Below the pieces are notes generated by a model. The model was not told the origin of the DNA and made no database searches. It was given only the letters and a program-made list of their open reading frames with translations. Position numbers and translations under genes: made by a program. From assembly GCA_000091165.1 (NCBI GenBank), contig FP565575.1, positions 2,100,001 through 2,132,000 on the forward strand: 32,000 nucleotides of DNA, read 5' to 3'. Below are positions 3,622-29,495 of this stretch, piece after piece. The stretch comes from Candidatus Methylomirabilis oxygeniifera. GTDB taxonomy: Bacteria > Methylomirabilota > Methylomirabilia > Methylomirabilales > Methylomirabilaceae. How positions within the stretch are numbered: the first letter of the stretch is position 1; each line of letters opens with the position of its first letter.

Positions 3622-3659
3622 ACTGCGGTATCCCGCGTGACCGGAAGGGCCCAAATAAA

Positions 3660-3706
3660 AACCCTCTCACGGAATTCACACCATCCGTGAGAGGGTTAAC
3701 TTTTTT
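3660..3706. terminator. Bidirectional rho-independent terminator between ftsH (+) and the PmoD-like gene (-)
   Basis: aaccctctcacgg (3660-3672) pairs with ccgtgagagggtt (3685-3697). It is followed by TTTTTT on the + strand and preceded by AAATAAAA, which reads as a T-run on the - strand. Confidence 0.8.
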
Positions 3707-3802: not shown

Positions 3803-4567
3803 TTACGCCGCTTTTTTCTTGCGTCTCACATACAGCACGGCGCCGATTCCCACGCCGGCAACCGTCATCACCAAAATTGCCGGATTGCTCATCATGGACG
3901 GACCGCGCGCGCCCCCCCCCCTGGGTGTCTTCAATCCGACGGTAAAGGGGAAGCTGAAGGTCGAATCGTGTGCATGATACGCCTCCTCTTCCGCTGTACT
4001 GGTATGCTGCTCGGCGCCGTCGTGACTGTGACTGACCGCCTCCGGTGCGTCGCCTCCGGCACGTGATCTCGCTCCCTGCTCCTCAACCTCCAGTACCGCC
4101 CTATACTTCCCGGCTTTTCCGAAATCCGTCTCAGCCCGCACGACACCTGAAGGATAGACCTGTTGAGGGATATACAGAACCGTTTGGGCGTCTTCACGCT
4201 CGGTGGCCTCGACGACGCGGACCGCCACAGGGGTCTTTCGCAGGGCATCGCTGATAAGATCAAACGTCAGCGTCGCCTTTCCTGTTCTTGGAATATCCCG
4301 ACAGTAGGATTGAAACTCTTCCTTCATCGCATCCACGTACCGCCTCAGGTCCGCATCCTTAAGCTCTTTGAGCTGAGCCAGCTGTGAGGCCCGGTCCGCC
4401 GTCCCATGCTGATAGGCGCTGAAGTGAATGAGATACTGCCCTTTCTCCCTCGAACAGAGATCGTTCTCCGTGATCCCACCCATGCCGCCGCCACCGTGAG
4501 CCCATGCCTGCGACGCTCCCATCACAGCCATCAGCGCTACAACTCCAATCGAAACACACTGCTTCAT
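3803..4567 (-). CDS. Secreted, C-terminally membrane-anchored His-rich protein; putative PmoD/AmoD-like periplasmic copper protein (paralogue 1)
   Basis: 254 aa. The signal peptide ends ...GASQAWA and is followed by HGGGG. It carries C38-x7-L-x-H48, EFQSYC, a His/acidic linker (SHSHDGAEQH..YHAHD), SFPFTVGL, one C-terminal TM helix and RRKKK. It lies 300 nt downstream of pmoB on the same strand and has a paralogue at 25467-26243. Confidence 0.85.
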   Translation of the reverse strand: MKQCVSIGVVALMAVMGASQAWAHGGGGMGGITENDLCSREKGQYLIHFSAYQHGTADRASQLAQLKELKDADLRRYVDAMKEEFQSYCRDIPRTGKATLTFDLISDALRKTPVAVRVVEATEREDAQTVLYIPQQVYPSGVVRAETDFGKAGKYRAVLEVEEQGARSRAGGDAPEAVSHSHDGAEQHTSTAEEEAYHAHDSTFSFPFTVGLKTPRGGGARGPSMMSNPAILVMTVAGVGIGAVLYVRRKKKAA

Positions 4568-4800
4568 GGCCTAACCTACTTCCATCGCGACCATCCCCTG
4601 TTGGTCTTTCTCGTACGCTCCCGAAGCACCGCCGTAGTGCATACAACAGATCCCTGCACGCATTGCGTTCACTGAATCGGTCGAGGGAGGTATGTCAACG
4701 AGATTCCGTTCATGGCTCGACAAAGTCCTGACAGGGACGGATGATAAAGGGGATTGTGAGGCACTACACTAACCGTGAGGAATGTTGAATGCGGTGGTGA

Positions 4801-4854
4801 GGGTCCCCCACCCCTTGAATTCTCCGTTATGTGAAGCTCAAGGGGTGGGGACCC
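4801..4854 (-). terminator. Strong GC-rich stem-loop 13 nt after the micro-ORF stop; leaky terminator or 3' mRNA stabiliser of the pmo transcript
   Basis: gggtcccccaccccttga (4801-4818) pairs with tcaaggggtggggaccc (4838-4854), giving a 17-bp stem with one bulged C. No U-tract follows on the minus strand. Confidence 0.45.
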
Positions 4855-4866
4855 TTCCACCTCCAC

Positions 4867-4950
4867 CTATGCCTGGTTCACCAGTGTCATCAGAACAAAT
4901 ATCAGCATGATAAGTAGCGCTAAGTTCATCCCTTGTGCGGCGAATTCCAT
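4867..4950 (-). CDS. 27-aa single-TM micro-protein immediately downstream of pmoB (candidate pMMO-associated peptide)
   Basis: It sits below the 60-aa cutoff of the track, as the C-terminal part of ORF 4867-5130. The ATG at 4950 is preceded by GGAGGGAG with 6-nt spacing and lies 19 nt after the pmoB stop. The peptide is MEFAAQGMNLALLIMLIFVLMTLVNQA. A stem-loop follows. Confidence 0.55.
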   Translation of the reverse strand: MEFAAQGMNLALLIMLIFVLMTLVNQA

Positions 4951-4969
4951 GATCGTCTCCCTCCTTCCG

Positions 4970-6238
4970 CTATTTGTACTGGGTAGTCGGCCGCCATTTG
5001 CCTCCGCCGGACAGGGCCGTTGCGCCACCCTCGAAGGACGGAATGACCGGGCCGCCGACCTCAACAATTTGTCTGTTCTTATCCGCATCAAAGAACTCAA
5101 AGAGTCCGCCGTACCGGCTGTCTGAGTCATAGATCAACTCAGCCAACCGCTGATATTCCCATTCCGCATCGGTCGCATCTATCGACATCGTTACGGTCTG
5201 GCCTGGAGGGATGGGACCGGCCGGCTCCACCTTGATTTTGAGTCGCGAGTCAGGGAAGAGGGCCGGATCCCGAAACTGCAGGTTGGCCGTGATGAATCCT
5301 CCCAATTGCTGAGGCCTGTTTGAACCGTTTGTGACCTCTATCACCATCCCAAGAGAACGTCCAGGTACGGTATAGACCGCTGTGACAGGCCTGGCCTTCA
5401 CCGTGGCATGGGAATACGGCGTAAACTCTGTCGTGGGCTTCAGTTCGGGAGTATCCATCCGACCGGTCTGCAGCGGGATGGTGATTGGGTAGGCGCCGTT
5501 CGTCGTGACGTAGCCGATAGCGACGATGAGGACCGTGGCGATCATCAGTACGAGTCCAAGCGTCCGATCGCCGGGGCTAACAAGCTCCTCCTCAGGTACC
5601 ACTCCCACCTGGAAGAGACGTCGCGTAAATGGCCGTCGTACCCACCACAGCAACCAGAACACACCGACAAAAGTCCAGAGGAGCCACCAGCCGATGATCC
5701 GACCTTGCCCATGGACCTCCATATTCACTGTCGTACCATCAATGGTGGTAACGTTATTGGTGAAGTTACTCCAGTCGCCATCGACGGTGACGAACTCGCC
5801 TCCACCGACCAGGGGCCCTCCACCCTCGATATTCACCATCGGGTGAACGTGATAGGTCCCGGTGACCCGGCCCATAATATTCATTCTATAATCATAGTCT
5901 CCGCCAAGTTGAGTACTGGTGGCGTTGATGACCGGCATGCCATTCATCCATGCCTCTTTCTTGAGCATTGATGGCCCAGGCACGGAGTAATGGAGAAAGA
6001 TCGATTCGGGGGTGTTTACGGCCCTCGGCCATTCACTAAATGTATGGAACTTTCCCGTCAGATCCATGGTCTCGCCAGGCTGTACCCGAGCTTTTGACCA
6101 TTTCGTATCGTAGAACGTTATTGTACGCATCCGAAGAAACGGCTCTTGCGATCGCTCGCCATGCGCCCATGCCGTTCCAGCGGATACGGCGATCACTCCA
6201 AGCAAGATCGCCGACAACGCCGCTCGTCCTATCCTCAT
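4970..6238 (-). CDS. pmoB: Particulate methane monooxygenase subunit B (PmoB)
   Basis: The start was moved to ATG 6238 (GGGAGGAT SD 5 nt upstream) within ORF 4970-6295. The signal peptide ends ...SAGTAWA, then HGERSQEPFLRMRT. It has the YHVHPM His motif, two TM helices (WWLLWTFVGVFWLLWW and LGLVLMIATVLIVAIGYV) and a C-terminal cupredoxin-like domain. Confidence 0.95.
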   Translation of the reverse strand: MRIGRAALSAILLGVIAVSAGTAWAHGERSQEPFLRMRTITFYDTKWSKARVQPGETMDLTGKFHTFSEWPRAVNTPESIFLHYSVPGPSMLKKEAWMNGMPVINATSTQLGGDYDYRMNIMGRVTGTYHVHPMVNIEGGGPLVGGGEFVTVDGDWSNFTNNVTTIDGTTVNMEVHGQGRIIGWWLLWTFVGVFWLLWWVRRPFTRRLFQVGVVPEEELVSPGDRTLGLVLMIATVLIVAIGYVTTNGAYPITIPLQTGRMDTPELKPTTEFTPYSHATVKARPVTAVYTVPGRSLGMVIEVTNGSNRPQQLGGFITANLQFRDPALFPDSRLKIKVEPAGPIPPGQTVTMSIDATDAEWEYQRLAELIYDSDSRYGGLFEFFDADKNRQIVEVGGPVIPSFEGGATALSGGGKWRPTTQYK

Positions 6239-6348
6239 CGTTATCCTCCCAGGTTCGTGGGTAAGCGTCAACACATTCGCATCATAGCGCCACATGGGGT
6301 TGCCTTATAGCCTTCCATCGAGAACCCCACGGCCCACATCGATGACAA

Positions 6349-7080
6349 CTACGTCCGCGAGATCCATGCCGGCCTTGAGATTACCTTCCCCATCCACACC
6401 CACCAGAGGTAGATAATTCCACTAATAAATCCGGCGAAGAACGAGGAAACCGGCGTAACGTCGCGCCCGAATGTTCGCAGCGTCCCCCGCTCCACGATTC
6501 GGATATACTCCGGCGTGGCGGAGCGCACATACTCCATCCCCATCAGATCAGCGATGGACATGAGCGGCCCGCTGGGATGCTTCACGGCCAAATGAAATGG
6601 CGCCAGCCAGGTCCAGTTCGCCGGATAGAACAACAGGGACCACCCCATGCCACCGAACAGTGCCGTAAACATGTAGCTTCCCGTCATCATCAGCATCACG
6701 TCCAGGAAGATCGCACTGGGGATCATCAGACCCGGGGCGGTAAAATTGACCGGAAACCAGGCCCAATAGTAAAAGTTAAAGACACGATTCATCCATTGTC
6801 CGAAGTGAAGCGTCATCACGCAAAAGGTCGCACCGATCGGCAGACGCATCTTCTCCCACATGAAATATTGCGTCGCCGCAGGGAAGGTAATCAACAGGAT
6901 CGGCGTCAACGTGACCCACCAGCGCCGATCCTTCCAGTCCAGCCAGAAGTCCCAGTCGCCAACGGTCAGCATCTGGTGGATGTGGTACCCCGCAACTGTA
7001 CCTGTGAACGCAGCCACTATGACAATAATATCAAACTTGCGCTCCAGGCTTAGAGCTTGCTGTTGTGTCAAAAGCGCCAT
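6349..7080 (-). CDS. pmoA: Particulate methane monooxygenase subunit A (PmoA)
   Basis: The start was moved to ATG 7080 (GAGGAGGGG SD) within ORF 6349-7143. The product is a 243-aa polytopic membrane protein with the characteristic ...MLTVGDWDFWLDWKDRRWWVT... motif. Confidence 0.95.
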   Translation of the reverse strand: MALLTQQQALSLERKFDIIVIVAAFTGTVAGYHIHQMLTVGDWDFWLDWKDRRWWVTLTPILLITFPAATQYFMWEKMRLPIGATFCVMTLHFGQWMNRVFNFYYWAWFPVNFTAPGLMIPSAIFLDVMLMMTGSYMFTALFGGMGWSLLFYPANWTWLAPFHLAVKHPSGPLMSIADLMGMEYVRSATPEYIRIVERGTLRTFGRDVTPVSSFFAGFISGIIYLWWVWMGKVISRPAWISRT

Positions 7081-7186
7081 AAGCTCTTCCCCTCCTCGAA
7101 GGGAGGGGGGGGGAGCAACCACCCCCCCTCCACATTTGGTCATGTAGACTTTGGGGACCTCAAAAAACGATCCTCAACGAGTATCG

Positions 7187-7963
7187 TTACGCGGTCGCCT
7201 TACCACCGCTGGTGATCCTGATCAACTCAAAGATCCGCGGACACATCGCCGCCGCCACGCCATACACCCCAAACAGACACCAACCCAGCGTGACAAAGCC
7301 CCAATGCAGCGGCGCCACAAACAGCTCTTCCATGATCCAGAAGGTGTGACCCCACTCGTTCAGCGCGACATTGACAAAGATCATCGCAGGGCCGCCGACC
7401 GTGAGCATGAACGGGATCGAGTGGGCCTTCGAAAATAGGGGGAGTCGGGTCCGGGCCCACATGTAGGCGCTAATCCCGATGATGATGTAGATCGGGTAGC
7501 TGAGATAGAACTCAATGATGTGGCTCGGCGTAAAGTCCGTATCGCGGATCACCGTCTGGTGCCACGTCCCGTCCTGCTCGGTAAAGAAGCTGGCGCCCCA
7601 ATACACCGCCCAGGCGAACGTCGCGATCCACTGCCCGAGACCCCAGAACCGCCTGAGCTCCTCCTCCGGCGTAATTTTATCGAGGTTCCGGTCGCGAGTC
7701 TTCCAGATGTACCCCAGGGCGAAGGTCAGCACCGCCCCCTCGATAATCAACTCCCCGATCAACATGTTCCACCAGTAGATCCGGAAGTCCTCGGAGAAGA
7801 AGTCGAGGCCTTTCGACCAGGAGAAGTACTGCTGGTAAATCCGAATCATAACGTAGAAGATGCTAATAGCTATCTGACATTTAAAGAAGGTGCCCCAGCC
7901 AAACATCTGCTCGACTGACTCGGCGCGCTTAGCCGGCGCAGCTTCCGTCCTGTACTGTGCCAT
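7187..7963 (-). CDS. pmoC: Particulate methane monooxygenase subunit C (PmoC)
   Basis: 258 aa, with AAGGAGGAAGG SD before ATG 7963. Conserved PmoC motifs RDTDFTPSH and NEWGHTFWIMEELFVAPLH are present. Gene order C-A-B is canonical. Confidence 0.95.
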   Translation of the reverse strand: MAQYRTEAAPAKRAESVEQMFGWGTFFKCQIAISIFYVMIRIYQQYFSWSKGLDFFSEDFRIYWWNMLIGELIIEGAVLTFALGYIWKTRDRNLDKITPEEELRRFWGLGQWIATFAWAVYWGASFFTEQDGTWHQTVIRDTDFTPSHIIEFYLSYPIYIIIGISAYMWARTRLPLFSKAHSIPFMLTVGGPAMIFVNVALNEWGHTFWIMEELFVAPLHWGFVTLGWCLFGVYGVAAAMCPRIFELIRITSGGKATA

Positions 7964-8155
7964 TTGATCCTTCCTCCTTACGCTCTGAACATGTTACATA
8001 ACGTAGACGGCACTACTCTAAGACCGCACTTCCCCTTACTTTCTCTTGACGCCGATTCTCACCTCCTTTGTCGCCACTGACGTAACAGGTTGAGGTTTAC
8101 GGTCGTTGTTGCTCAACAAAATCGCTCTTTGGAAACCTTGTTCTAAGAAGATGTT

Positions 8156-8185
8156 AGCATATGTCGCGATTGAAACACCTGTCAA
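8156..8185 (-). promoter_or_regulatory. Sigma-70-like promoter in the pmoC upstream region
   Basis: Minus strand reads TTGACA (8185-8180), 18-nt spacer, TATGCT (8161-8156). It lies about 190 nt upstream of the pmoC ATG. Confidence 0.4.
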
Positions 8186-8276
8186 GTCCTTTTTGCCTTC
8201 CGAACCCTGTTCCAACCTTGATCACATTGACACCTGCATCCGAGCAATACTGAAGACAACACTAAGACTTTAATAC

Positions 8277-8291
8277 GCAAGGATGGTGCCA
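8277..8291 (-). promoter_or_regulatory. Sigma-54 (-24/-12) promoter upstream of pmoCAB
   Basis: Minus strand reads TGGCAC-catcc-TTGC, an exact match to the TGGCAC-N5-TTGC consensus. It lies about 315 nt upstream of the pmoC ATG and 131-154 bp downstream of a repeated palindrome. A sigma-54 activator gene is adjacent. Confidence 0.6.
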
Positions 8292-8421
8292 AACGTAGTG
8301 GCAATCGGTATTGAGCCTACTTTCACCAGTGAAATCAAGAGGTTCAAATAGTGACTTCAAAGAAACGCCATGGGTCGCAACAGAATTTCTAGTTAATTTT
8401 CATTAGAACGCCCCACCCTGC

Positions 8422-8445
8422 GACAGCTGTCCCACCACAGCTGTC
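8422..8445. promoter_or_regulatory. Tandem ACAGCTGTC palindromes; candidate enhancer (UAS) for the sigma-54 promoter, or a terminator-like hairpin of the regulator gene
   Basis: gACAGCTGTC (8422-8431) and ACAGCTGTC (8437-8445) are 14 bp apart, start to start. Together they can also fold as an 8-bp stem (gacagctg/cagctgtc). They lie directly after the regulator stop codon. Confidence 0.35.
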
Positions 8446-10116
8446 TCAGACTGAGTCAATCTGCGTCTGTCGTTTCAGACCAAACTGCTCCAGTTTGCGA
8501 TACAGCGTACTGCGGGAGATGCCGAGCTGGGCCGCGGCCTGCGACAAATTCCCCGCACATTGCTGGACGATCTGACAGATGAGCTGCCGTTCGGTCTGCG
8601 CGAGCCAGCCGCCGGGCTCCGGCCGCTCGGAGGCCTCCCCGCGCAGGGTGCGAATCGCCTCGGGAAAGTCGTCCCAGCGGATCTCGGGCCGCGGCAGGAG
8701 CACGCCCACCTGCTGCAGGACATTGCGCAGCTCCCGGACATTGCCGGGCCACGGATACGGGGTGAGCGCGAGCGCGCGCAGCGCCTCCTCCGTAAAGCGC
8801 AGGTCCGGGCAGTGCAAGGCGGCGGCGACATCGGCCAGGAAGGAGGCCGCCAGCAGGGGGATATCCTCCCGCCGCTCCCGCAAGGGCGGCAGGTGGATCG
8901 AAATGACATTGAGCCGGTAGTACAGGTCCTCCCGAAACAGCCCCTTGGCCACCTCTTTGAGCAGGTCTTTATTGGTCGCGGCGATGATGCGGACATCGAG
9001 GGGGACCGGCTGGCCGCTCCCTAGTCGGGTGAGCTCCTGCTGCTCCAGCACCCGCAGGAGCGCCACCTGGGTGCTGGGCGAGCACTCGCTGACCTCATCG
9101 AGGAAGAGGGTGCCGCCCTGGGCCTCTTCGAACCGGCCCGACCGGCCGCCTTTGCGCGCGCCGGTAAAGGTGCCGTCTTCATAGCCGAACAGCTCAGACT
9201 CGATCAGCTCCCGGGGGATGGCACCGCAGTTGACCGCGATGAACGGCTTGGGGGCGCGGGGGGAGCTGGCGTGGATCGCATGCGCGAGCATCTCTTTCCC
9301 GGTCCCCGATTCCCCGGTGATGAGGACGGAGAGGGTGTTGCCGGCGGCGATGAGGCCGATCTTGGTCGCGTTGCGGAAGGCGGCGGACTGCCCCACCAGA
9401 TCGGCAAAGGTGTACTTGGCCCCCACCACGATCGCCTTGGGCTTGCGGGGGACGGGCGGCTCCAGTCGGGCGGTCGGAAAGAGCACGGCGGCGGCGACCA
9501 CCTGCGAGCCGTGCCGGAGCGCCAGGCCCCAGGCCGTAAGGAGCCGGCCGCTACGCCCGCAGTAGACCTTGACCTCCTGGGGGCTGGAGGGGGCACGGGT
9601 CAGCAGGGTGCGGCCGACCTCGGCCAGCTCCGGGATCGCCGCGACGGAGGGCCGGGCGGGGTCGAGCTGCAGCAGGTGCGCGGCGGCCCGATTGCACAGC
9701 AGCACCTGCCCCTGCGGATCCAGCACCAGCAGGCCGTCGCTGAGCAACTCCGCGGCGGCGGTGAGCGGCCCCAGCAGCGCCTCGGCAGCGCGCGCCGGCG
9801 GGACGTCGGGCAACGGCGGGGCGAGGAGCGAGCCGGCTAAGAGCTCGATCACCAGATCGCTTTGGACGTGGGTGCGGCAGAGCAGGACGTGGCCCTGGGC
9901 CTGCTCGCTGGCGGAGAGCACGTGATCCGGCGGCGCGACCAGGTGGGCCTGGCCGCTGCGGAGGCGGGCCTTACAGCCCCCGCACTCGCCGTCCGCGCAG
10001 CGGTAATCGACCAGGCGCAGGCCCTGGCGCAGGGCGACCTGCAGGACCGACTCGGTGTCGTCACACTCGATGGTGATGCCCAGCGGTTCAAACCGGACCT
10101 TGCGCATCCGCGTCAT
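8446..10116 (-). CDS. Sigma-54-dependent transcriptional activator with N-terminal 2Fe-2S ferredoxin-like domain and PAS-like sensor region
   Basis: The N-terminus has C-ADGE-C-GG-C ... LLC (a plant-type Cx4Cx2C..C pattern). A PAS-like LLVLDPQGQVLLCNRAAAHLL follows. The AAA+ domain has Walker A GESGTGKE, GTFTGA (a GAFTGA variant) and GGTLFLDEV. The C-terminal Fis-type HTH is LSQAAAQLGISRSTLYRKL. ATG 10116 has AGGAG 9 nt upstream; an alternative GTG at 10182 overlaps the helicase stop (GTGA). Confidence 0.9.
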   Translation of the reverse strand: MTRMRKVRFEPLGITIECDDTESVLQVALRQGLRLVDYRCADGECGGCKARLRSGQAHLVAPPDHVLSASEQAQGHVLLCRTHVQSDLVIELLAGSLLAPPLPDVPPARAAEALLGPLTAAAELLSDGLLVLDPQGQVLLCNRAAAHLLQLDPARPSVAAIPELAEVGRTLLTRAPSSPQEVKVYCGRSGRLLTAWGLALRHGSQVVAAAVLFPTARLEPPVPRKPKAIVVGAKYTFADLVGQSAAFRNATKIGLIAAGNTLSVLITGESGTGKEMLAHAIHASSPRAPKPFIAVNCGAIPRELIESELFGYEDGTFTGARKGGRSGRFEEAQGGTLFLDEVSECSPSTQVALLRVLEQQELTRLGSGQPVPLDVRIIAATNKDLLKEVAKGLFREDLYYRLNVISIHLPPLRERREDIPLLAASFLADVAAALHCPDLRFTEEALRALALTPYPWPGNVRELRNVLQQVGVLLPRPEIRWDDFPEAIRTLRGEASERPEPGGWLAQTERQLICQIVQQCAGNLSQAAAQLGISRSTLYRKLEQFGLKRQTQIDSV

Positions 10117-10178
10117 CCTCGTGGACTCCTGGGGGGTCCCCTGCCGTCCGGCGGGCACGCCGGACGGCATCGGGGGGC

Positions 10179-11402
10179 TCACGCCCCCTCGGTTTCCGCC
10201 GACTTTCGACCCTGGCGCACGCTATTCGCGGCCACCGCGGCACCGGCAGCTACCCCTGGGGCAAACGCCGATTCGTCCGGCCACTGCACAGGAATCTTAA
10301 ACCCGATGTACCGCTCGATCGCATCAAGCGACAGCACATATTCCTCGTCAGCCAGACTGATCGCCTTACCGGCTGCCCCGGCCCGCGCCGTTCGTCCGAT
10401 CCGGTGGACGTAATCTTCCGGGTCCTGCGGGAGGTCGTAGTTGATCACGTGACTGACCGCCTCAACATGCAACCCACGCGATGCGACATCGGTCGCCACC
10501 AGGATCGGCAGCGTGCCCGCTTTGAACTTGGTGATAATCTGGAGGCGCTTACGCTGATCGATGCTACCGCTGATCAGGCCCGCCCGGAAGCCGCACCGGA
10601 CCAACTTATCAGTGAGCCGCTCGGCGCCCTGCCGAGTATTCGAAAAGATCAGGATCCGTTGCCACGCCTCGCGCTGAAGCAACCAGCGCAACAGCCGGAA
10701 TTTTTCCTGCTTCTCGACGTGAAAGAGCAGATGTTCAACCTTGTCGACCGTAACCTGTTCCGGGGAAATGGCGACCTTAATCGGATTATTCATAAACTCG
10801 TACGACAGCTCCATCTCTCGAAATGAAAGCGTCGCCGAAAACAGGAATGACTGACGCTTATGGTAGGGGGGGAGCCGCCTCAGCAGGAAGCGAAGGTCCT
10901 TGATGAACCCCATGTCGAACATCCGGTCGGCCTCGTCCACAACCAGGACTTCGACTTGAGAGAGTTCGTAGACCCCCTGCTTGAAGTAATCGATGAGCCG
11001 CCCGGGTGTTCCGATGAGGATATCGACGTTCTGTTGAAGCGCGTCCCGCTGTTTCTGATAGTCCACCCCTCCATAGGCTGCGAGCCGTGTCAGGCCGGTG
11101 AATCCACCCAACAACTCCGCATCCCACAGGATCTGCACGGCCAGCTCACGCGTGGGCGCCAGGATCAGGGCTCGGGGGGCGCCGGAAAGCGTAGGGTGTC
11201 TTGAAGTGAGTAGTCTGACAAAGAGGGGGATCAGGAAAGCGGCTGTCTTACCGCTGCCGGTCTGAGCTTGCCCGGCAATATCTTTCCCCGCCAGGGCGAG
11301 CGGCAGCGTCTCAGCCTGGATCGGTGTACACTGAGTAAAACCGGCCGCCTCTATTCCCCTCGCGATCGACGCGGGAAGTGAAAAGGTGTCGAAGGTCGTC
11401 AT
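10179..11402 (-). CDS. DEAD-box ATP-dependent RNA helicase
   Basis: 407 aa. Motifs seen: Q-motif ...GFTQCTPIQ, AQTGSGKT, PTRELA, DEAD, SAT and HRIGRTARAG. Confidence 0.92.
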   Translation of the reverse strand: MTTFDTFSLPASIARGIEAAGFTQCTPIQAETLPLALAGKDIAGQAQTGSGKTAAFLIPLFVRLLTSRHPTLSGAPRALILAPTRELAVQILWDAELLGGFTGLTRLAAYGGVDYQKQRDALQQNVDILIGTPGRLIDYFKQGVYELSQVEVLVVDEADRMFDMGFIKDLRFLLRRLPPYHKRQSFLFSATLSFREMELSYEFMNNPIKVAISPEQVTVDKVEHLLFHVEKQEKFRLLRWLLQREAWQRILIFSNTRQGAERLTDKLVRCGFRAGLISGSIDQRKRLQIITKFKAGTLPILVATDVASRGLHVEAVSHVINYDLPQDPEDYVHRIGRTARAGAAGKAISLADEEYVLSLDAIERYIGFKIPVQWPDESAFAPGVAAGAAVAANSVRQGRKSAETEGA

Positions 11403-11498
11403 GCACCGCTCCCGGCCACGACAATCTCAGCAGGTCGTCCCGCGAAGCGTGCGCTGATCAGTCGATTGTGTCGTGCTGGCATAGACATACTTATTCTT

Positions 11499-11527
11499 AT
11501 TATGCCTCTCATAATGGGGATTGACAA
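11499..11527 (-). promoter_or_regulatory. Sigma-70-like promoter for the helicase operon
   Basis: Minus strand reads TTGTCA (11527-11522), 17-nt spacer, CATAAT (11504-11499). This is about 95 nt upstream of ATG 11402. Confidence 0.35.
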
Positions 11528-11549
11528 GGTAAATCGGTTGTGGTAAAAA
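11521..11549 (+). promoter_or_regulatory. Sigma-70-like promoter for the lipoprotein gene, back to back with the helicase promoter
   Basis: TTGACA (11521-11526), 17-nt spacer, TAAAAA (11544-11549), preceded by TG. Confidence 0.3.
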
Positions 11550-11713
11550 AACTCGTTTCGTTTTTGAGTGGCCCGATGTCGTCTTGAAGATCGTACGGAA
11601 AGGTGATTATTGAAGCCTGGCCGTTGATCCCCTCCTCGATGGCCCGCCATCCGGGACGCGTTGTTTGGAGCTTGGGTTTTTTTTTAACACTTTAACTTTC
11701 TACGGAGGTGACA

Positions 11714-12291: not shown

Positions 12292-13926
12292 TTAATACAT
12301 ATCGCCCATCCCGCCGTGGCCTCCCGGCGGCATCTGCGGCGCCTTCTCCTTTTCCGGAACCTCAGTCACCAGCGCCTCGGTGGTAATCATCAACGACGCG
12401 ATGCTCGACGCGTTCTGCAGCGCAATCCGAGCGACCTTGGTCGGGTCGATGATCCCGGCCACCAGCATATCCTCATACGTCTCCGTCTCGGCGTTGAAGC
12501 CGTATGAACCGTTGTTCTCTCGGACCTTCTGGACGACAATCGAGCCCTCAACTCCTGCATTCTCCGCAATCTGGCGGATCGGCTCCTCCAGCGCGCGACG
12601 AATGATGTCGCCGCCGACCTTCTCGTCGCCTTCAAGCTTCAGCTTTTCGACGACCCTCGACGCTCGAAGGAAAGCCACGCCGCCACCGGGGACGATCCCC
12701 TCTTCGACAGCCGCGCGGGTCGCGTTCAGCGCATCCTCGACCCGGGCCTTCTTCTCCTTCATCGCGATCTCGGTAGCCGCTCCGACCTTGATGACCGCCA
12801 CACCGCCGGCAAGCTTGGCCAGCCGCTCTTGCAGTTTCTCCCTGTCGTAGTCCGAGGTCGACTCCTCGACCTGGGTTCGAATCTGCTTGATACGGCCTTC
12901 GATCTCCTTCTGGGCGCCGGCACCTTCGATGATGGTCGTATTCTCCTTATCGATGACCACTTTCTTCGCCTTGCCCAGATCGTCCAGTCGAATATTCTCC
13001 AGCTTGATCCCCAACTCCTCAGAGATCACCTCACCGCCGGTGAGTACCGCGATGTCCTTCAGCATCTCCTTACGCCGATCGCCAAAGCCCGGCGCCTTGA
13101 CCGCCGCGCAGCTCAGGGTCCCACGCAGCTTGTTGACCACCAGAGTGGCCAGCGCCTCACCCTCAACCTCTTCAGCAATCACCATCAGCGGCTTGCCCAT
13201 CTTAGCGATCTGTTCCAGAATCGGCAGGAGATCCTTGAGGTTACTGATCTTCTTTTCGTGGATCAGGATCAGCGGGTTTTCCAGGACTACCTCCATCCGC
13301 TCAGGGTCGGTCACGAAATATGGCGACGTATAGCCTCGATCAAACTGCATCCCCTCAACCACCTCGAGGGTCGTCTCCATGCTCTTCGCTTCCTCGACGG
13401 TGATGACCCCGTCTTTGCCGACCTTCTCCATGGCATCGGCGATGAGCTCGCCGATCGTCTTATCGTTATTGGCCGAGATCGTGGCAACCTGGGAGATCTC
13501 CTTCTTCCCCTTGGTCGGCTTGGAGATCTTCCTGAGTTCATCCACGATACCCTCAACGGCCTTCTCGATTCCCCGCTTCAACGCCATCGGGTTCGCGCCG
13601 GCCGTGACGTTCCTGATCCCCTCTCGGAAGATAGCCTGGGCCAGCACAGTGGCAGTGGTGGTGCCGTCTCCGGCAACATCGGAGGTCTTGCTCGCAACCT
13701 CCTTCACCATCTGGGCGCCCATATTCTCAAAGTTATCTTCCAGTTCGATCTCCTTGGCTACCGTAACGCCATCCTTCGTAATATTCGGAGCGCCGAACTT
13801 CTTATCGATGACCACGTTACGCCCCTTAGGACCCAGAGTCACCTTCACGGCGGCGGCAAGGACGTCCACACCCTTCTGAATCTTCCGCCTTGCCTCCTCA
13901 TCAAACAGCAACTGCTTCGCTGGCAT
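12292..13926 (-). CDS. groL: Chaperonin GroEL (60 kDa)
   Basis: The start was moved to ATG 13926 (GAGGAGG SD) within ORF 12292-13944. The product reads [15 protein letters not shown]...[13 protein letters not shown]... and has a C-terminal GGM-type tail ([10 protein letters not shown]). Confidence 0.97.
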
Positions 13927-14026
13927 ATCAGCTTTCCTCCTCAACCTGCGTCAGTTCCCCGATCGGAGTCGGGGACAAGGTTTAACTACGAAATGGCGAT
14001 CTCCTCGTCAACGCTCTGCAGCCCTG

Positions 14027-14314
14027 CTATTGCAGGATGCATAGAACGTCTTCCTCCCGCATGATCAGGAATTCCTCATTGTCGACCTTGACCTCCGAAC
14101 CGGAGTACTTGCCAAAGAGGATCTTATCGCCTGCCTTCACATCCATCGGCTGTCGCTTTCCATCATCACCGACCTTGCCCGGCCCGACGGCAATCACTTC
14201 GCCTTCTTGGGGCTTCTCTTTCGCAGTATCGGGGATAATGATCCCGCCCTTCTTGATTTCTTTTTCTTCCAGACGCTTCACCAGGATTCGGTCGTGCAAC
14301 GGCTTTACCCTCAC
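14027..14314 (-). CDS. groS: Co-chaperonin GroES (10 kDa)
   Basis: 95 aa, with GTG start 14314 and AAGGAG 9 nt upstream. The product reads (M)[18 protein letters not shown]...[13 protein letters not shown]. It sits immediately upstream of groEL. Confidence 0.95.
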
Positions 14315-25466: not shown

Positions 25467-26243
25467 TCAGGCTGGTTTCTTCCGCCTGCCGTTCATATAG
25501 TATTTGACGCCACCCACCAAGGCGCAAATAGCCAATAATGTGATCGCCAACTGGAACCCCAGATTCGACACCAGCCAAGGCAGGCGACTGTGTGCCCTTA
25601 CCGCCAGGCCTACGGAAAACGGGAAGCTGTAGGTATGGTCTACAGCTTTGATCTGGGCCTCTGTAGGATCGGTTCCGGGTCCATGGGTATGGCTGACTCG
25701 CTGCCATTCTCCAACCTCTGAGCCTCGATGAGGCTTGTGGGCAATGCCAGGTCCCGCCTTCTCCAGTGTCATGAGGGCAATGTAGTGCCCGGGCTTGGTG
25801 ATTTCGGTATCGATCCTGATCGACCCATCACCGTAAACAGCCGCGGGAAGGGAAAAAACAGCGTGGGAGTGTCCGCCACCTTCAGTGTCCTCGTGAGCCG
25901 CAACAGCCTCAACAATTCGAACCGAGATGGGAAGCGCTCGCATCTCCTCATTATACAGGTCAAACGCGATCGACAACTTGCCTGTCTTCGGGACCCCTTC
26001 ACAGTAAGACTGGAACTCCTTCTTGACCTGCTCCGACCCCACTTCGTGCATCAGCGGAATCATTCCCGCGCCGATAAGCTCCTGATAGGCAGTGAAGTGA
26101 ACGGTATAATGGCCCTTCACTGCGGTGCAAGCATCTGCCGCATCCCAGTCACCCATCACATCGCCACCGCCGTGACCAAAGGCCTGAGATGCCACAAAAA
26201 CCGGCACGAGCACGACCGAGAATAACAACATCAAGCGCTTCAT
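25467..26243 (-). CDS. Secreted, C-terminally membrane-anchored His-rich protein; putative PmoD/AmoD-like periplasmic copper protein (paralogue 2)
   Basis: 258 aa, with AAAGGAGAGGAG SD. The signal peptide ends ...VASQAFG and is followed by HGGGD. It carries C39-x7-T-x-H49, EFQSYC, VRIVEA, SHTH, HTYSFPFSVGL, a C-terminal TM helix and RRKK. It is collinear with 3803-4567. Confidence 0.85.
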   Translation of the reverse strand: MKRLMLLFSVVLVPVFVASQAFGHGGGDVMGDWDAADACTAVKGHYTVHFTAYQELIGAGMIPLMHEVGSEQVKKEFQSYCEGVPKTGKLSIAFDLYNEEMRALPISVRIVEAVAAHEDTEGGGHSHAVFSLPAAVYGDGSIRIDTEITKPGHYIALMTLEKAGPGIAHKPHRGSEVGEWQRVSHTHGPGTDPTEAQIKAVDHTYSFPFSVGLAVRAHSRLPWLVSNLGFQLAITLLAICALVGGVKYYMNGRRKKPA

Positions 26244-26343: not shown

Positions 26344-27756
26344 TCACCGTGACCCATCCGGCTTGCCGGGCAGACCGGGTTCGGTCAGTTTCACGGGGTC
26401 AAGGATCTCGGCTATCTGAGCCTCAGTAAGCAGTTTTTCCTCGCGGACGATGTCAATGATCGTTTTCTGCTCTCGTATAGCTCGCTTTACTACCTCGGCG
26501 ACCCTGGCATAGCCGACTAACACATTCAATGCCGTCGCCAACGCCATACTACGCTCAGCATAGCGGTGGCATCGGTCGACGTCGGCAACGATGCCGCCGA
26601 CACAGCGGTCAATGAAGACCCGTATAGCGTTTTTCAGGATTTCGATCGACTGGTGGAGATTATAGGCTAGGACCGGCATCATGACGTTCAGCTCAAGCTG
26701 TCCGGCCTGAACCGCCATCGAGACGGTCAGATCGTTGCCGATGACCTGGAAGCAGACCATGTTCAGCATCTCGGCCATAGACGGGTTAATCTTACCCGGC
26801 ATGATCGAGGAGCCCGGTTGCACCGCAGGCAGCTTGATCTCAGCCAACCCGGTGGTGGGACCTGAGGTCAGCAGGCGCAGATCGTTGCAGATTCGTGTCA
26901 ATTCAAGCGCAAGCAGCCTCAGGGCTGATGAGGCCTCGGCGATCGGGAGGTTCGACTGCATCGCTTCGCGCATGTCTGGCGCATTGCGCCACTCGATCCC
27001 CGTCCAGGCACATAGGTACTCCACCAGCCTGGCACGATACCGCGGGTGAGTGTTCAGGCCTGTACCGACGGCACTTCCGCCGATTCCCAACTCTTCAAGC
27101 GATCGCGCTGCGACAGCAATCCGCTCCCGACATTTTCCGATGGTCACCGCGTAGGCTGCGAACTCTTGACCCAGTCGGATAGGAACCGCATCCTGTAGAT
27201 GCGTTCGAGCCGACTTCAGGATGCCGTCAAATTCACTCGCTTTCTCAGCCAGGGCGGTCTTCAGATCCCCCAGGACCGGCAACAGCTCTGCCAACAGTAG
27301 ACGAGCGGCCATCCGCATGGCGGTTGGAAAGACATCATTGGTGGACTGGGCCATATTGACATGGTCATTGGGATGAACAATGGTATAGTCACCCTTCTGT
27401 CCCCCAAGGAGTTCGATAGCCCGGTTGGCCAGGACCTCGTTGGCATTCATGTTAAAAGAGGTGCCCGCTCCCATTTGATAGACATCTACAACAAACTGAT
27501 CTTGGAGCTTGCCGGCTAAGACCTCGTCGGCCGCCGCTGTGATCACCCTGCTGATCGCCGGCTTCAAGAGTTCCAAGTCGGTGTTGACCAGCGCGGCCGC
27601 CTTCTTCACCAGGACGATCGCCTCCACCATCCGTGAGTGCATCCTGAGCCCGCTAATGGGGAAATTTTCCATCGCCCTCACCGATTGCAGGCCATAGTAC
27701 GCCTCGACCGGAACCGCCTTCTCCCCCAATACATCCTTCTCGATCCGCGTCGCCAT
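26344..27756 (-). CDS. aspA: Aspartate ammonia-lyase (class II fumarase/aspartase superfamily)
   Basis: The start was moved to ATG 27756 (GGGAGAG SD) within ORF 26344-27798. The N-terminus reads MATRIEKDVLGEKAVPVEAYYGLQSVRAMENFPISG and the signature GSSIMPGKINP is present. The aspartase versus fumarase call rests on N-terminal resemblance only. Confidence 0.8.
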   Translation of the reverse strand: MATRIEKDVLGEKAVPVEAYYGLQSVRAMENFPISGLRMHSRMVEAIVLVKKAAALVNTDLELLKPAISRVITAAADEVLAGKLQDQFVVDVYQMGAGTSFNMNANEVLANRAIELLGGQKGDYTIVHPNDHVNMAQSTNDVFPTAMRMAARLLLAELLPVLGDLKTALAEKASEFDGILKSARTHLQDAVPIRLGQEFAAYAVTIGKCRERIAVAARSLEELGIGGSAVGTGLNTHPRYRARLVEYLCAWTGIEWRNAPDMREAMQSNLPIAEASSALRLLALELTRICNDLRLLTSGPTTGLAEIKLPAVQPGSSIMPGKINPSMAEMLNMVCFQVIGNDLTVSMAVQAGQLELNVMMPVLAYNLHQSIEILKNAIRVFIDRCVGGIVADVDRCHRYAERSMALATALNVLVGYARVAEVVKRAIREQKTIIDIVREEKLLTEAQIAEILDPVKLTEPGLPGKPDGSR

Positions 27757-28037
27757 CTCGTTCTCTCCCGAGGTTACACGGTGTGACCTGCCGCTCATGC
27801 AGAATGAAGGCGAATACCCCTCGTTTACGCCGAAGCTTCGGCAAGACCGGCACCCTGTCTTTCAAGTTGATGAGGGCAATGACCCGGCCGCCGGAGAGCC
27901 GAGCAGCCGGTAATCGGCAGGCAGAGCCGCTCGGCGGTGCACACAGAATAGCATGATGGTCCAATATACGATATTCGATTTTATGCCGGGTTTCTTCGAC
28001 TGTACGATGACCTTACTCAAATCCGTAGTAAGGGGGA

Positions 28038-28067
28038 TTGCATTGTCGAGGATCAATACGATACAAT
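28038..28067 (+). promoter_or_regulatory. Sigma-70-like promoter for hao, overlapped by a 7-bp inverted repeat
   Basis: TTGCAT (28038-28043), 18-nt spacer, TACAAT (28062-28067). The inverted repeat GCATTGT..ACAATGC spans the -35 to the -10. Confidence 0.55.
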
Positions 28068-28133
28068 GCCGTCTATCCGGAGAACAATCATCGTCCGTTC
28101 GGCGGGATGCAGGAAAAGCCGGGACACGTTGTC

Positions 28134-29495
28134 ATGAGGCATAGCAATCGAAGGTGGAAATGGCGACTGGTTCTCGCAGTCGCTGCCTTGCTCGCGGCCG
28201 CACTACCGTGGGGTTCAGCCGTAGCGGCGGACCGCCCGTATTTGTCGCATGGGGCCGGCGCCTATCGGGATCAGTGGCAAGCACCCTCGGTCTATCAATG
28301 GCTCGATCCGAATCTCTTTACCTCCAACAATCCCATTCAGGGGGTCTTCAACGGGGAGGCATGTGTTGCCTGCCATGCCGGGGTTACGCCGACGATCGTC
28401 AACGATTGGAAAATCAGCAGACACGCGCCGGCCAAGGTCTACTGTACGGCCTGTCATGGCAACGACCACCAGAAGCTCTCCATGCCGAAACCGGAGACCT
28501 GCGAAGGGTGCCACAAGACCCAGGTCTCCCAATATAAGGAGGAGTTGAAAGCCGGCCACCCGGCTCATGCGCGCGCCATGGACCCTGACGTATATCGCAA
28601 TGCATGGCAGATGCATAAGCCGCAGGCCGAGGTCGTCGGATGCGCCCAGTGCCATCGGATCGGGAGCGTCGGGTGCGATAGCTGCCACACGCGCCATAAA
28701 TTCTCGGCGGCTGAAGCCCGCAAACCCAGCGCGTGCATGAGCTGTCACAGCGGGGTCGATCATCGGGACTACGAGGTCTGGGAGAACTCCAAGCACGGCA
28801 ACATCTGGCAGGCTGAGACACAGGACACGGATTGGACCACGCCGCTCCAACGCGGTAACTACCGGTTCCCCACCTGCGCCTACTGCCATATGCCCGGAGG
28901 CGACCACAACACGGTGCGTAACACTGTCTATGCAGGCATGGGGACACAGGAGGTCAACCGCGGGGCGCCGGAACATCAGGCCAAGCGGGACCGGTGGATC
29001 GGAGTATGCGGCGATTGCCACTCCTCCAGATTTGCTCGAGCACAGCTTGATTACATGGATGAAGCCGTCAGCGTCAGCTTCAAGAAGGTGCGGGAGGCAA
29101 AACGGATTCTCGAGGATCTGTACAAAGAGGGGATCATGGAACCGATGCCGCAGTTCCTGGCCCCAGGATGGAAGGGCGGGCATGCGGCGGCCTTTGGCGG
29201 CATGAACTATAACGTTCCGGCCATCGAGCGGCTCTTTTATGAAATGGTCGCCTTTGCCACCACTAATACGTTTAAAGGGGCGGCGCACGGCTCAGGCGGC
29301 GCCGCCACGTATACCTTCGGCGCCTTCGAGGCCGACAAGTACCTGGCCGCCATCAAGAGCGAGGCCGAGAAGATGCGGCGGATGGCCAAAATCGAACAGA
29401 AGGTCGGCGTGCCGTATCAACCGTCAGAGTTCTGGAAGCACGGCGAGTACACCGATACCCTCAAGGTTATCAAGGAACCGAAAGATGAGCGCTGA
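28134..29495 (+). CDS. hao: Octahaem cytochrome c, hydroxylamine oxidoreductase (HAO)-like
   Basis: Eight CxxCH motifs: CVACH, CTACH, CEGCH, CAQCH, CDSCH, CMSCH, CAYCH, CGDCH. The signal peptide is MRHSNRRWKWRLVLAVAALLAAALPWGSAVAA. A ...CGDCHSSRFARAQLDYMDEAV segment is typical of HAO. ATG 28134 was chosen (alternative 28107); the track start 28038 coincides with the predicted promoter -35. Confidence 0.9.
   Translation: MRHSNRRWKWRLVLAVAALLAAALPWGSAVAADRPYLSHGAGAYRDQWQAPSVYQWLDPNLFTSNNPIQGVFNGEACVACHAGVTPTIVNDWKISRHAPAKVYCTACHGNDHQKLSMPKPETCEGCHKTQVSQYKEELKAGHPAHARAMDPDVYRNAWQMHKPQAEVVGCAQCHRIGSVGCDSCHTRHKFSAAEARKPSACMSCHSGVDHRDYEVWENSKHGNIWQAETQDTDWTTPLQRGNYRFPTCAYCHMPGGDHNTVRNTVYAGMGTQEVNRGAPEHQAKRDRWIGVCGDCHSSRFARAQLDYMDEAVSVSFKKVREAKRILEDLYKEGIMEPMPQFLAPGWKGGHAAAFGGMNYNVPAIERLFYEMVAFATTNTFKGAAHGSGGAATYTFGAFEADKYLAAIKSEAEKMRRMAKIEQKVGVPYQPSEFWKHGEYTDTLKVIKEPKDER

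Follow-up and report, generated by a model that had tools for sequence, protein, structure and literature searches.

Which genes and control elements belong to a particulate methane monooxygenase (pMMO) besides the three structural genes pmoC, pmoA and pmoB? Little of the enzyme's activity survives isolation, and the list of its components continues to be revised. The question is raised here by the pmo locus in a 32,000-nt stretch of the Candidatus Methylomirabilis oxygeniifera genome (contig FP565575.1, positions 2,100,001 to 2,132,000), hereafter called the window; coordinates without a locus name are window positions, and all of the elements studied lie on its minus strand (Table 1). With rather more confidence than doubt, we read this locus as an extended pmo operon of Methylomirabilis type, in which a lineage-specific activator would switch on a sigma-54 promoter upstream of pmoC, and in which pmoB would be followed by the genes of a single-helix membrane peptide and of a PmoD-family protein.

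An initial annotation of the window had named seven elements in order: a DEAD-box helicase gene overlapping the gene of a ferredoxin-PAS-AAA+ sigma-54 activator, a repeated palindrome, an exact TGGCAC-N5-TTGC element, a leader of roughly 300 nt, pmoCAB, a transmembrane (TM) micro-open reading frame (micro-ORF) with a strong Shine-Dalgarno (SD) sequence, and a stem-loop followed by the gene of a secreted, His-rich, anchored PmoD-like protein. It had taken them together for an unrecognised regulatory and accessory layer of a copper membrane monooxygenase (CuMMO). All seven were found on the minus strand of the window, although not all of them stood in the form proposed.

The pmo locus and its relatives

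The identities of pmoC, pmoA and pmoB are unambiguous. Three Pfam families are matched in the order C-A-B, as the initial annotation had it, and the three subunits all score above the cutoffs of the NCBIfam AmoC/A/B_BACT models. For pmoA and pmoB we prefer the internal starts given in Table 1 to those of the longest ORFs, because the gene calls of the homologs give products of 243 aa for PmoA and 422 aa for PmoB.

Loci for the comparison of gene order (numbered with the prefix L) were gathered by a metagenome scan and by exact-protein look-ups; a PmoA-based scan of genome contigs yielded only three short NC10 contigs, the remainder being proteobacterial. On a 294-kb contig (L093) the entire order is repeated, orf83-helicase-activator-pmoCAB-peptide-PmoD-like-(ftsH), and L091 has the order activator-pmoCAB-peptide-PmoD-like-ftsH, without the helicase. 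Truncated versions of this order are found in L001, L082-84, L087, L090 and L092, and L090 keeps pmoCAB-peptide-PmoD-like even though its pMMO subunits are only 72-74% identical to those of the window. The activator gene is syntenic with pmoC in L001, L091, L093, L082-84 and L088, and a PmoD-like gene lies 3' of pmoB in the window, L001-3, L082-84, L087, L090-93, L097 and L099. Outside the genome of the window, the activator, the sigma-54 element, pmoCAB, the micro-ORF, the hairpin and the PmoD-like gene are thus mostly co-conserved across Methylomirabilis. The loci L099 and L097 represent a distant CuMMO lineage (PmoA 56% and PmoB 41% identical), in which pmoCAB is followed by a relative of the PmoD-like gene (37%) and the spacer carries a hairpin; neither the micro-ORF nor the activator nor the sigma-54 element was found in this lineage (L099 6996-10714, and L097). 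An ECF (extracytoplasmic function) sigma factor gene and a tRNA-like sequence (~5860-5945, recognised by eye and not with a tRNA finder) lie near the pmo locus of L099.

As the elements are real and mostly conserved in synteny, they plausibly make up a layer of control and accessory functions around this pMMO. However, this layer is only in part unrecognised: accessory genes of the PmoD type and extended operons as such are already known. A link to the helicase is unsupported. The statement that canonical descriptions of pmo operons list pmoCAB only is outdated, as extended pmo/amo operons with pmoD, amoD or amoE are established (PMC6189053).

In related genomes we also observed a duplicated segment (L088 1-2346, L081 1-1155, also L085 and L086), which consists of the 3' end of the activator gene, the corresponding sigma-54/sigma-70 promoter region and a lone pmoC. 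The lone pmoC is followed by a PmoD-like paralog, a DUF2281 gene and a UvrA-like gene, with a GC-rich hairpin and no micro-ORF. The assemblies that break at the pmo locus probably do so because of this segment duplication and the GC-rich activator gene.

The micro-ORF, the hairpin and the PmoD-family gene

The product of the micro-ORF is a single hydrophobic helix without charged Lys or Arg, and its variants of 25-27 aa have a grand average of hydropathy (GRAVY) of 1.6-1.9 and an 18-residue apolar core. An unbiased scan of the spacers between pmoB and the PmoD-like gene recovered an ORF of 25-27 aa with an AAGGAG-type SD and a TL(V/T)NQA end in all ten Methylomirabilis spacers, so that the TM micro-ORF with its strong SD stands as first described. 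Its variable columns fall 14/5/18 on the three codon positions; position 2 varies in 5 of 23 codons and position 3 in 18 of 23. Between L003 and the window 12 codons differ synonymously and three non-synonymously, the latter conservatively, and the single length difference among the variants is an in-frame indel of two codons. From this codon-position pattern, the conservative changes and the in-frame indel it follows that selection acts on a hydrophobic peptide and not merely on an RNA. The micro-ORF is therefore a real, conserved gene under purifying selection. By exact look-up, JGI/IMG alone holds gene calls, without names, for five of its eight variants, and the variant of the window itself was not in a collection of 15 billion proteins. 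A search for homologs 3' of pmoB/amoB in 26 loci of proteobacteria and ammonia-oxidising bacteria (AOB) gave no candidate with a properly placed SD; the small hydrophobic ORFs flagged in these loci lay elsewhere, several of them overlapping PmoD/AmoD-type genes.

What such a peptide might do is suggested by recent structures. Native-membrane cryo-electron microscopy (cryoEM) placed a 23-residue protein beside PmoC in the pMMO of Methylocystis sp. Rockwell and the product of an unannotated 46-residue ORF on AmoC of N. europaea, and it was proposed that supernumerary helices of this kind have a widespread role (PMC11725843). A second structure of ammonia monooxygenase (AMO) confirmed a single-TM subunit, the 'AmoD' of N. 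halophila (PMC12804982; for a review, see PMC13058606). Like these helices, the NC10 peptide is a very small single hydrophobic helix, missed or unnamed in annotation and restricted to a lineage, and with 25-27 aa it is near the size of the Methylocystis helix. In contrast to them, it is known here from its gene alone and is linked to pMMO by the position of that gene in the operon, whereas the known helices were found in cryoEM maps, and a search of the PDB chains gave no sequence similarity to them. The archaeal AmoX, AmoY and AmoZ (PMC10030591) are likewise extra small membrane subunits of a CuMMO, with genes that lie close to the core genes or are expressed together with them, but they belong to another domain of life, are unrelated and larger, and were identified by complexome proteomics. 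By analogy with the bacterial helices, we regard the micro-ORF as the foremost candidate for a supernumerary helix of pMMO whose gene lies in the operon, and an NC10 counterpart of those helices would be its most economical reading. In the literature searched, nothing relevant was found on small pMMO proteins in Methylomirabilis.

The stem-loop that was noted initially is present and conserved, but it is not a canonical terminator. A hairpin occupies the equivalent place in 9 of 9 loci with divergent sequences, and compensatory changes are seen in 8 of its 19 pairs. A U-run follows it in none of the nine loci (the sequence at this place in the window is GCAUUCAAC), the terminator scan made no call, and we rejected the hairpin as an intrinsic terminator. 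As it lacks a U-tract and a canonical terminator occurs only after the PmoD-like gene, we infer that transcription reads through into that gene.

The PmoD-like protein of 254 aa matched no Pfam or NCBIfam model, and its close relatives in a homolog search were all from NC10/Methylomirabilis assemblies, a partial protein from a Candidatus Methylomirabilis oxygeniifera MAG being 100% identical. Nevertheless, its family can be recognised by sequence and by fold. A phmmer search of the PDB sequences gave a sole match, PmoD of Methylocystis sp. Rockwell (6CPD, E=2.2e-6), which a profile of 18 homologs matched at E=1.5e-11, with the N-terminal motif aligned as DDLCSVEKGQYLVHFSAYQH to GNMCMVMFGYDMIHITVFQP. 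When its AlphaFold2 (AF2) model was compared by Foldseek, the top matches were 6cpd_B and 6cpd_A (E~2e-8 (1.7e-8), TM(target) 0.75), the next match being at E=4e-3 and generic Ig-like folds far behind. The protein begins with a signal peptide, read from the sequence as MKQCVSIGVVALMAVMGASQAWA|HGG, and ends in a hydrophobic C-terminus closing with RRKKK, where the AF2 model has a helix at 229-251. Its residues are laid out as C38-x9-H48, an insert of ~30 aa, and C89, the motif CSREKGQYLIH being C-x7-L-x-H. C38 and C89, which align to GNMC and SEYC of 6CPD, are invariant in the 18 homologs, as is H48, and the three correspond to C41, C65 and H51, respectively, of Methylocystis PmoD when C38, C89 and H48 are taken in this order. 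Where PmoD has the CuA ligand Met49, the PmoD-like family has L, I, V, F or T and never Met. In the work of Fisher et al. (2018, PMC6189053), PmoD lost CuA upon the M49A exchange, and only Cx7MxHxnC proteins formed CuA; as the Met of Cx7MxH is replaced here, a CuA site is not expected. Judged by sequence, fold and motifs, the window protein is a genuine member of the PmoD/AmoD family, of a Met-less subclass predicted to be non-CuA. Copper binding is at most hinted at, by the invariant His at the mature N-terminus, by C38/H48 and by the His-rich linker.

The family, the C-x7-X-x-H motif and the anchor that had been proposed for this secreted His-rich protein thus hold, but the protein is not new in kind, as the same study reported both extended pmo/amo operons and the presence of pmoD homologs in NC-10 methanotrophs (PMC6189053). 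The window locus shares with those operons a gene 3' of pmoB/amoB whose cupredoxin-like product is secreted and anchored at its C-terminus, two invariant Cys and C-x9-H, homology by sequence and fold, and multiple PmoD-type paralogs per genome, and it shares with the AmoD/AmoE genes 3' of amoB in AOB loci the layout AHG(G)...C-x9-H...(F/Y)C.(D/E)IP. It differs from the PmoD of that study in the Met-less motif, the insert of ~30 aa between the motif and the second Cys, the Gly-rich N-terminus and the long His-rich linker before the last strand. Unlike in the extended operons described, the PmoD-like gene is separated from pmoB by a micro-ORF and a hairpin and is not followed by copCD/pCuAC genes, the next gene being a convergent ftsH.

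A second PmoD-like gene is present in the window (25467-26243, minus strand); its product of 258 aa, 35% identical to the operon copy, has an AHGGG mature N-terminus, C-x9-H, FQSYC and a TM anchor. It adjoins the gene of a class-II fumarase/aspartase-type lyase (26344-27798), and a multihaem cytochrome of the HAO/hydrazine-dehydrogenase family (28038-29495) is encoded nearby. A further, 53%-identical branch of PmoD-like proteins is also encoded away from pmo genes (L095 10001-10681, L100 3200-3928), in L100 beside ChrB-like, cupin and MFS genes.

The activator gene and the region upstream of pmoC

The gene upstream of pmoC encodes an enhancer-binding protein, in which Pfam recognises Fer2 (5e-11), Sigma54_activat (6.4e-66) and HTH_8 (7e-13) together with AAA_lid, and whose sigma-54 interaction loop reads GTFTGA, one residue off GAFTGA. 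The ferredoxin cysteines C62, C67, C70 and C102 (C-x4-C-x2-C...C) are invariant in seven sequences; the N-terminus holds the plant-type [2Fe-2S] ligand set in a Fer2 fold, and a cluster is predicted from it. For the N-terminal 255 residues, an index of 5.8 billion sequences gave full-length matches only to NC10 proteins (three hits), and among the best 150 of 1,693 hits from 1.84 billion representatives the full-length match was one NC10 cluster, P0076; further Fer2-bEBP (bacterial enhancer-binding protein) fusions may stand lower in that list. The remaining matches have the Fer2 domain alone in common, notably the MmoC-type monooxygenase reductases, whose ferredoxin domains are nearest to that of the activator. 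The best NCBIfam matches of the activator include NorR and NifA, all of them far below cutoff.

The Fer2-PAS-AAA+ layout and the two genes of the helicase-activator pair are present as described initially, but their overlap is doubtful. The homologs of the activator begin at window residue 23 (MTR..RKVRFEPLG), where the ATG listed in Table 1 is preceded by AGGAG. The 4-nt overlap is probably not real, because it needs the GTG of the longest ORF. Kept upstream of the activator in L093 and missing in L091, the helicase was rejected as a part of the system; it is probably an incidental neighbour.

The activator gene is also a compositional outlier, with a GC content of 64-75% and a GC content at third codon positions (GC3) of 0.86-0.93, against 58% GC for the window and a GC3 of 0.64 for pmoB. 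This holds in all lineages (the window gene; L091 4531-6270; L093 4401-6092; and a paralog, L098 9983-11650), and a foreign origin or an unusual codon selection is possible. While rpoN is not present within the 32-kb window, several genes for bacterial enhancer-binding proteins (bEBPs) occur in the Methylomirabilis loci L091 and L098, which we count as indirect support for rpoN.

The region between the activator stop and pmoC was aligned for seven Methylomirabilis loci, including the lone-pmoC copy (mean identity 72%). Directly 3' of the activator stop, a palindrome is repeated in the window as GACAGCTGT-N6-GACAGCTGT. Its core GTG.GACAG.TGT is invariant in the seven loci; however, the relatives keep the tandem ACAnnTGT and not the perfect palindrome seen in the window. 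These repeats stand ~150 nt upstream of the -24 element (the usual span of an upstream activating sequence, UAS, is about 80-200 bp), and they are a candidate UAS to which the activator may bind. The block GAACCTCTTGATTTCAC between the repeats and the -24 element (reverse complement AATCAAGAGGTTC) is a possible bending site of the integration host factor (IHF) type, to whose consensus it comes only near. The exact TGGCAC-N5-TTGC element is unique in the window, where 0.01 matches are expected from shuffles, and the sequence GTTTGGCA[CT][CT]ATCCTTGC at this site, with GG/GC kept, is invariant in all seven loci including the lone-pmoC copy. No other run of invariant positions between the two genes is as long as this block of 18 nt, which is oriented toward pmoC. 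A sigma-70-like element follows 105 nt downstream, of which CTTGAC[AG]G and, 18 nt on, TAnnnT are kept in the seven loci. Since it is as conserved as the sigma-54 element, tandem promoters are likely. A leader of ~300 nt assumes that transcription starts ~12 nt past TTGC; the length proposed initially would hold if the sigma-54 start is used, but a conserved sigma-70-like promoter lies within that leader.

The SD of pmoC is also among the invariant blocks of the alignment. Another such block, AAAGGAGGTGA (8059-8069, minus strand), lies ~95 nt upstream of the pmoC ATG in the seven loci; it is a long SD-like match without a usable start codon and may be an mRNA-stabilising or ribosome stand-by element. 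A structured or riboswitch-like leader was rejected, with two of 26 pairs covarying (RNAalifold) and only sub-threshold noise in Rfam.

The operon of the soluble methane monooxygenase (sMMO) has a -24/-12 promoter and a dedicated enhancer-binding protein, MmoR, which is not known to have a ferredoxin domain and works with the GroEL-like MmoG. The present locus is similar in combining a methane monooxygenase operon, a -24/-12 promoter and an enhancer-binding protein, but the enzyme is pMMO and not sMMO. There is no analogue of MmoG here, because groES (14027-14314) and groEL (12292-13944), which lie on the minus strand upstream of the helicase, are a canonical pair well above the equivalog cutoff, and GroEL was dismissed as an MmoG-like co-regulator. 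NorR, which senses NO at a non-haem Fe, and NifA are AAA+ sigma-54 activators gated by a sensory module at the N-terminus; in contrast to these, the sensor encoded in the window would be a plant-type [2Fe-2S] ferredoxin domain with a PAS domain. The literature searched held nothing relevant on sigma-54 control of pmoCAB or on NC10 locus tags beside pmoCAB, and both the micro-ORF and the pair of Fer2-PAS activator and sigma-54 promoter are apparently undescribed there.

An ORF for a very basic, low-complexity protein of 83 aa (11399-11650, minus strand) abuts the helicase start. Its product is 52% identical over 52 aa to that of L093 and matches no family; the ORF could be a 5' extension or spurious.

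Table 1. Features of the pmo locus in the window
Feature	Position	Strand	Basis and remarks
Intrinsic terminator, 14-bp stem + UUUUUAUUU	3653-3697	-	-25.8 kcal/mol, z = -6.3; shared with convergent ftsH
PmoD/AmoD-family protein, 254 aa	3803-4567	-	Signal peptide (AWA|HGGGG), cupredoxin-like core, His-rich linker, TM anchor
Long hairpin without U-tract	4793-4866	-	Directly 3' of micro-ORF stop; -51 kcal/mol, z = -6.9
Micro-ORF, 27 aa, MEFAAQGMNLALLIMLIFVLMTLVNQA	4867-4950	-	SD GGAAGGAGG 7 nt upstream of ATG; ATG 19 nt past pmoB stop
pmoB	4970-6295	-	Pfam Monooxygenase_B 9.4e-121; likely start M20 at 6238
pmoA	6349-7143	-	Pfam AMO 2.8e-95; likely start M22 at 7080
pmoC	7187-7963	-	Pfam AmoC 8.8e-93; NCBIfam AmoC_BACT above cutoff
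pmoC 5' leader	7964-8265	-	~300 nt from sigma-54 start, ~186 nt from sigma-70 start
Sigma-70-like element TTGACA-N18-TATGCT	8156-8185	-	10/12 in consensus scan; second or rival promoter
Sigma-54 -24/-12 element TGGCAC-N5-TTGC, TGGCACCATCCTTGC	8277-8291	-	Sole exact match in 32 kb
Block GAACCTCTTGATTTCAC	8329-8345	-	Between repeats and -24 element; GAAC..TTGATT.CAC invariant in 7 loci
Tandem ACAnnTGT repeats, GACAGCTGT-GGTGGG-ACAGCTGTCG, 14 nt apart	8421-8445	-	Read from sequence; candidate UAS
Enhancer-binding protein ([2Fe-2S] ferredoxin, PAS, AAA+, HTH_8)	8446-10182	-	Pfam; likely start ATG 10116
DEAD-box RNA helicase, RhlB/RhlE-like	10179-11402	-	Pfam DEAD 5.7e-47, Helicase_C 5.5e-31; NCBIfam RhlB below cutoff

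A proposed extended operon and its alternatives

In the operon that we propose, the Fer2-PAS enhancer-binding protein, encoded directly upstream, would bind the ACAnnTGT repeats past its own stop codon and, upon a redox, NO or O2-type signal at its cluster, would switch on the sigma-54 promoter ~150 nt downstream, while the sigma-70-like promoter further down would provide basal transcription. The transcript would comprise a long leader, pmoC, pmoA, pmoB and then the peptide gene, the translation of which may be coupled to that of pmoB through its SD and the 19-nt gap. The peptide would be a membrane-inserted single helix, serving pMMO as a supernumerary subunit or an assembly factor, in analogy to the Methylocystis and Nitrosomonas helices. 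The hairpin would most likely serve as an mRNA 3'-end stabiliser or a partial barrier, by which the pmoCAB-peptide mRNA would exceed the downstream message, and the latter would yield a membrane-anchored, periplasmic, Met-less copper protein of the PmoD family. The unit would end at the canonical terminator 3' of the PmoD-like gene.

Several observations weigh against this operon as proposed, and most of them bear on one or another alternative. It is possible, though in our view doubtful, that pmoCAB is transcribed essentially from the sigma-70-like promoter, the activator and TGGCAC-N5-TTGC serving autoregulation, a leader RNA or a minor conditional boost, or being a relic. The sigma-70-like element scores 10 of 12, its -35 box and TAnnnT are kept in 7 of 7 loci, and it is located inside the proposed leader, so that the sigma-54 element could be secondary or drive something else. 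Proteobacterial methanotrophs such as Methylococcus and Methylosinus use sigma-70 promoters for pmoCAB, with leaders of ~300 nt, and in L099 a sigma-70-type CTTGACAG lies ~200 nt upstream of pmoC without a sigma-54 element or an activator. As to the activator itself, its PAS_8 match is marginal (22.6 bits against a cutoff of 21.8), and another Methylomirabilis genome has a 60%-identical paralog away from pmo genes, in L098. This paralog is frameshift-fragmented in the assembly and has EB_dh/Nitrate_red_del and molybdopterin oxidoreductase/NrfD/ActD genes as neighbours; because it adjoins a molybdoenzyme cluster, the activator family is not specific to pMMO. On the other hand, transcription from sigma-70 alone would leave the 18-nt sigma-54 block as the longest invariant intergenic stretch with an exact consensus hardly expected by chance, pointing at pmoC from a canonical distance to conserved repeats and beside a bEBP gene, and this element was co-duplicated with the lone pmoC copy in L088. 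Since L099 has CTTGACAG and neither the sigma-54 element nor the activator, a basal sigma-70 promoter combined with a Methylomirabilis-specific, activator-dependent sigma-54 promoter is the most likely arrangement.

The micro-ORF could instead be a regulatory or coupling ORF that tunes the hairpin, the mRNA stability or the read-through, or encode a small membrane protein unrelated to pMMO, which we consider unlikely, and slightly more so than the sigma-70 alternative. In all loci its stop adjoins the conserved hairpin at the base; the ORF is absent from the lone pmoC-PmoD-paralog locus and from all non-Methylomirabilis CuMMO loci examined (L097/L099 and the 26 proteobacterial/AOB loci); and the peptide resembles no PDB chain below E=5, the deposited CuMMO structures and their helices included. 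Yet the position-2 conservation, the conservative hydrophobic exchanges, the invariant TL(V/T)NQA end and the in-frame indel indicate selection at the amino-acid level, and the spacing past pmoB and the strong SD suggest an expression level like that of PmoB. The missing similarity is uninformative, because the known supernumerary helices differ from one another in size and orientation (PMC11725843). It is improbable that the locus is a mere neighbourhood, in which the PmoD-like gene, the helicase and the activator are expressed independently and have no functional tie to pMMO. The helicase that L091 lacks, the PmoD-like paralogs away from pmoCAB (25467-26243 in the window, L095 and L100) and the strong hairpin between pmoB/micro-ORF and the PmoD-like gene would fit such independence. 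However, loci with as little as 72% pMMO identity keep the order activator-pmoCAB-peptide-PmoD-like, pmoCAB-PmoD-like is kept even at 56% PmoA identity, no U-tract terminator occurs before the end of the PmoD-like gene, and other organisms co-regulate and co-transcribe PmoD/AmoD genes with their pmo/amo genes (PMC6189053). Apart from these alternatives, a reservation concerns the AF2 model of the PmoD-like protein, which reaches high confidence only in its beta-core (blocks of 77-86, one of 69; mean predicted local distance difference test score, pLDDT, 56).

We therefore retain the extended operon as the reading of this locus. Its strongest form, in which the NC10 pMMO would have the peptide as its fourth subunit, a supernumerary helix recognised, unusually, by the place of its gene in the operon, and pMMO synthesis would be gated via sigma-54 by a [2Fe-2S]/PAS protein that senses NO, internal O2 or redox state, is put forward only tentatively.

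The supernumerary helices of these enzymes came to light only in 2024-2025, when their sequences were built straight into cryoEM maps. The NC10 micro-protein offers a sequence-defined candidate pMMO subunit that is directly testable, and as standard gene callers miss such short ORFs, it is worthwhile to scan pmoB/amoB-proximal spacers for them. The Met-less, insert-bearing PmoD branch helps to separate CuA-dependent from CuA-independent roles of PmoD. As intra-aerobic, nitrite-dependent methanotrophs, Methylomirabilis must make their own O2 from NO, and an Fe-S/PAS sigma-54 activator beside an invariant -24/-12 promoter provides a concrete hypothesis for how they control pMMO. If true, the sigma-54 gating of pMMO by a [2Fe-2S]/PAS protein would be a mode of regulation undescribed for any methanotroph.

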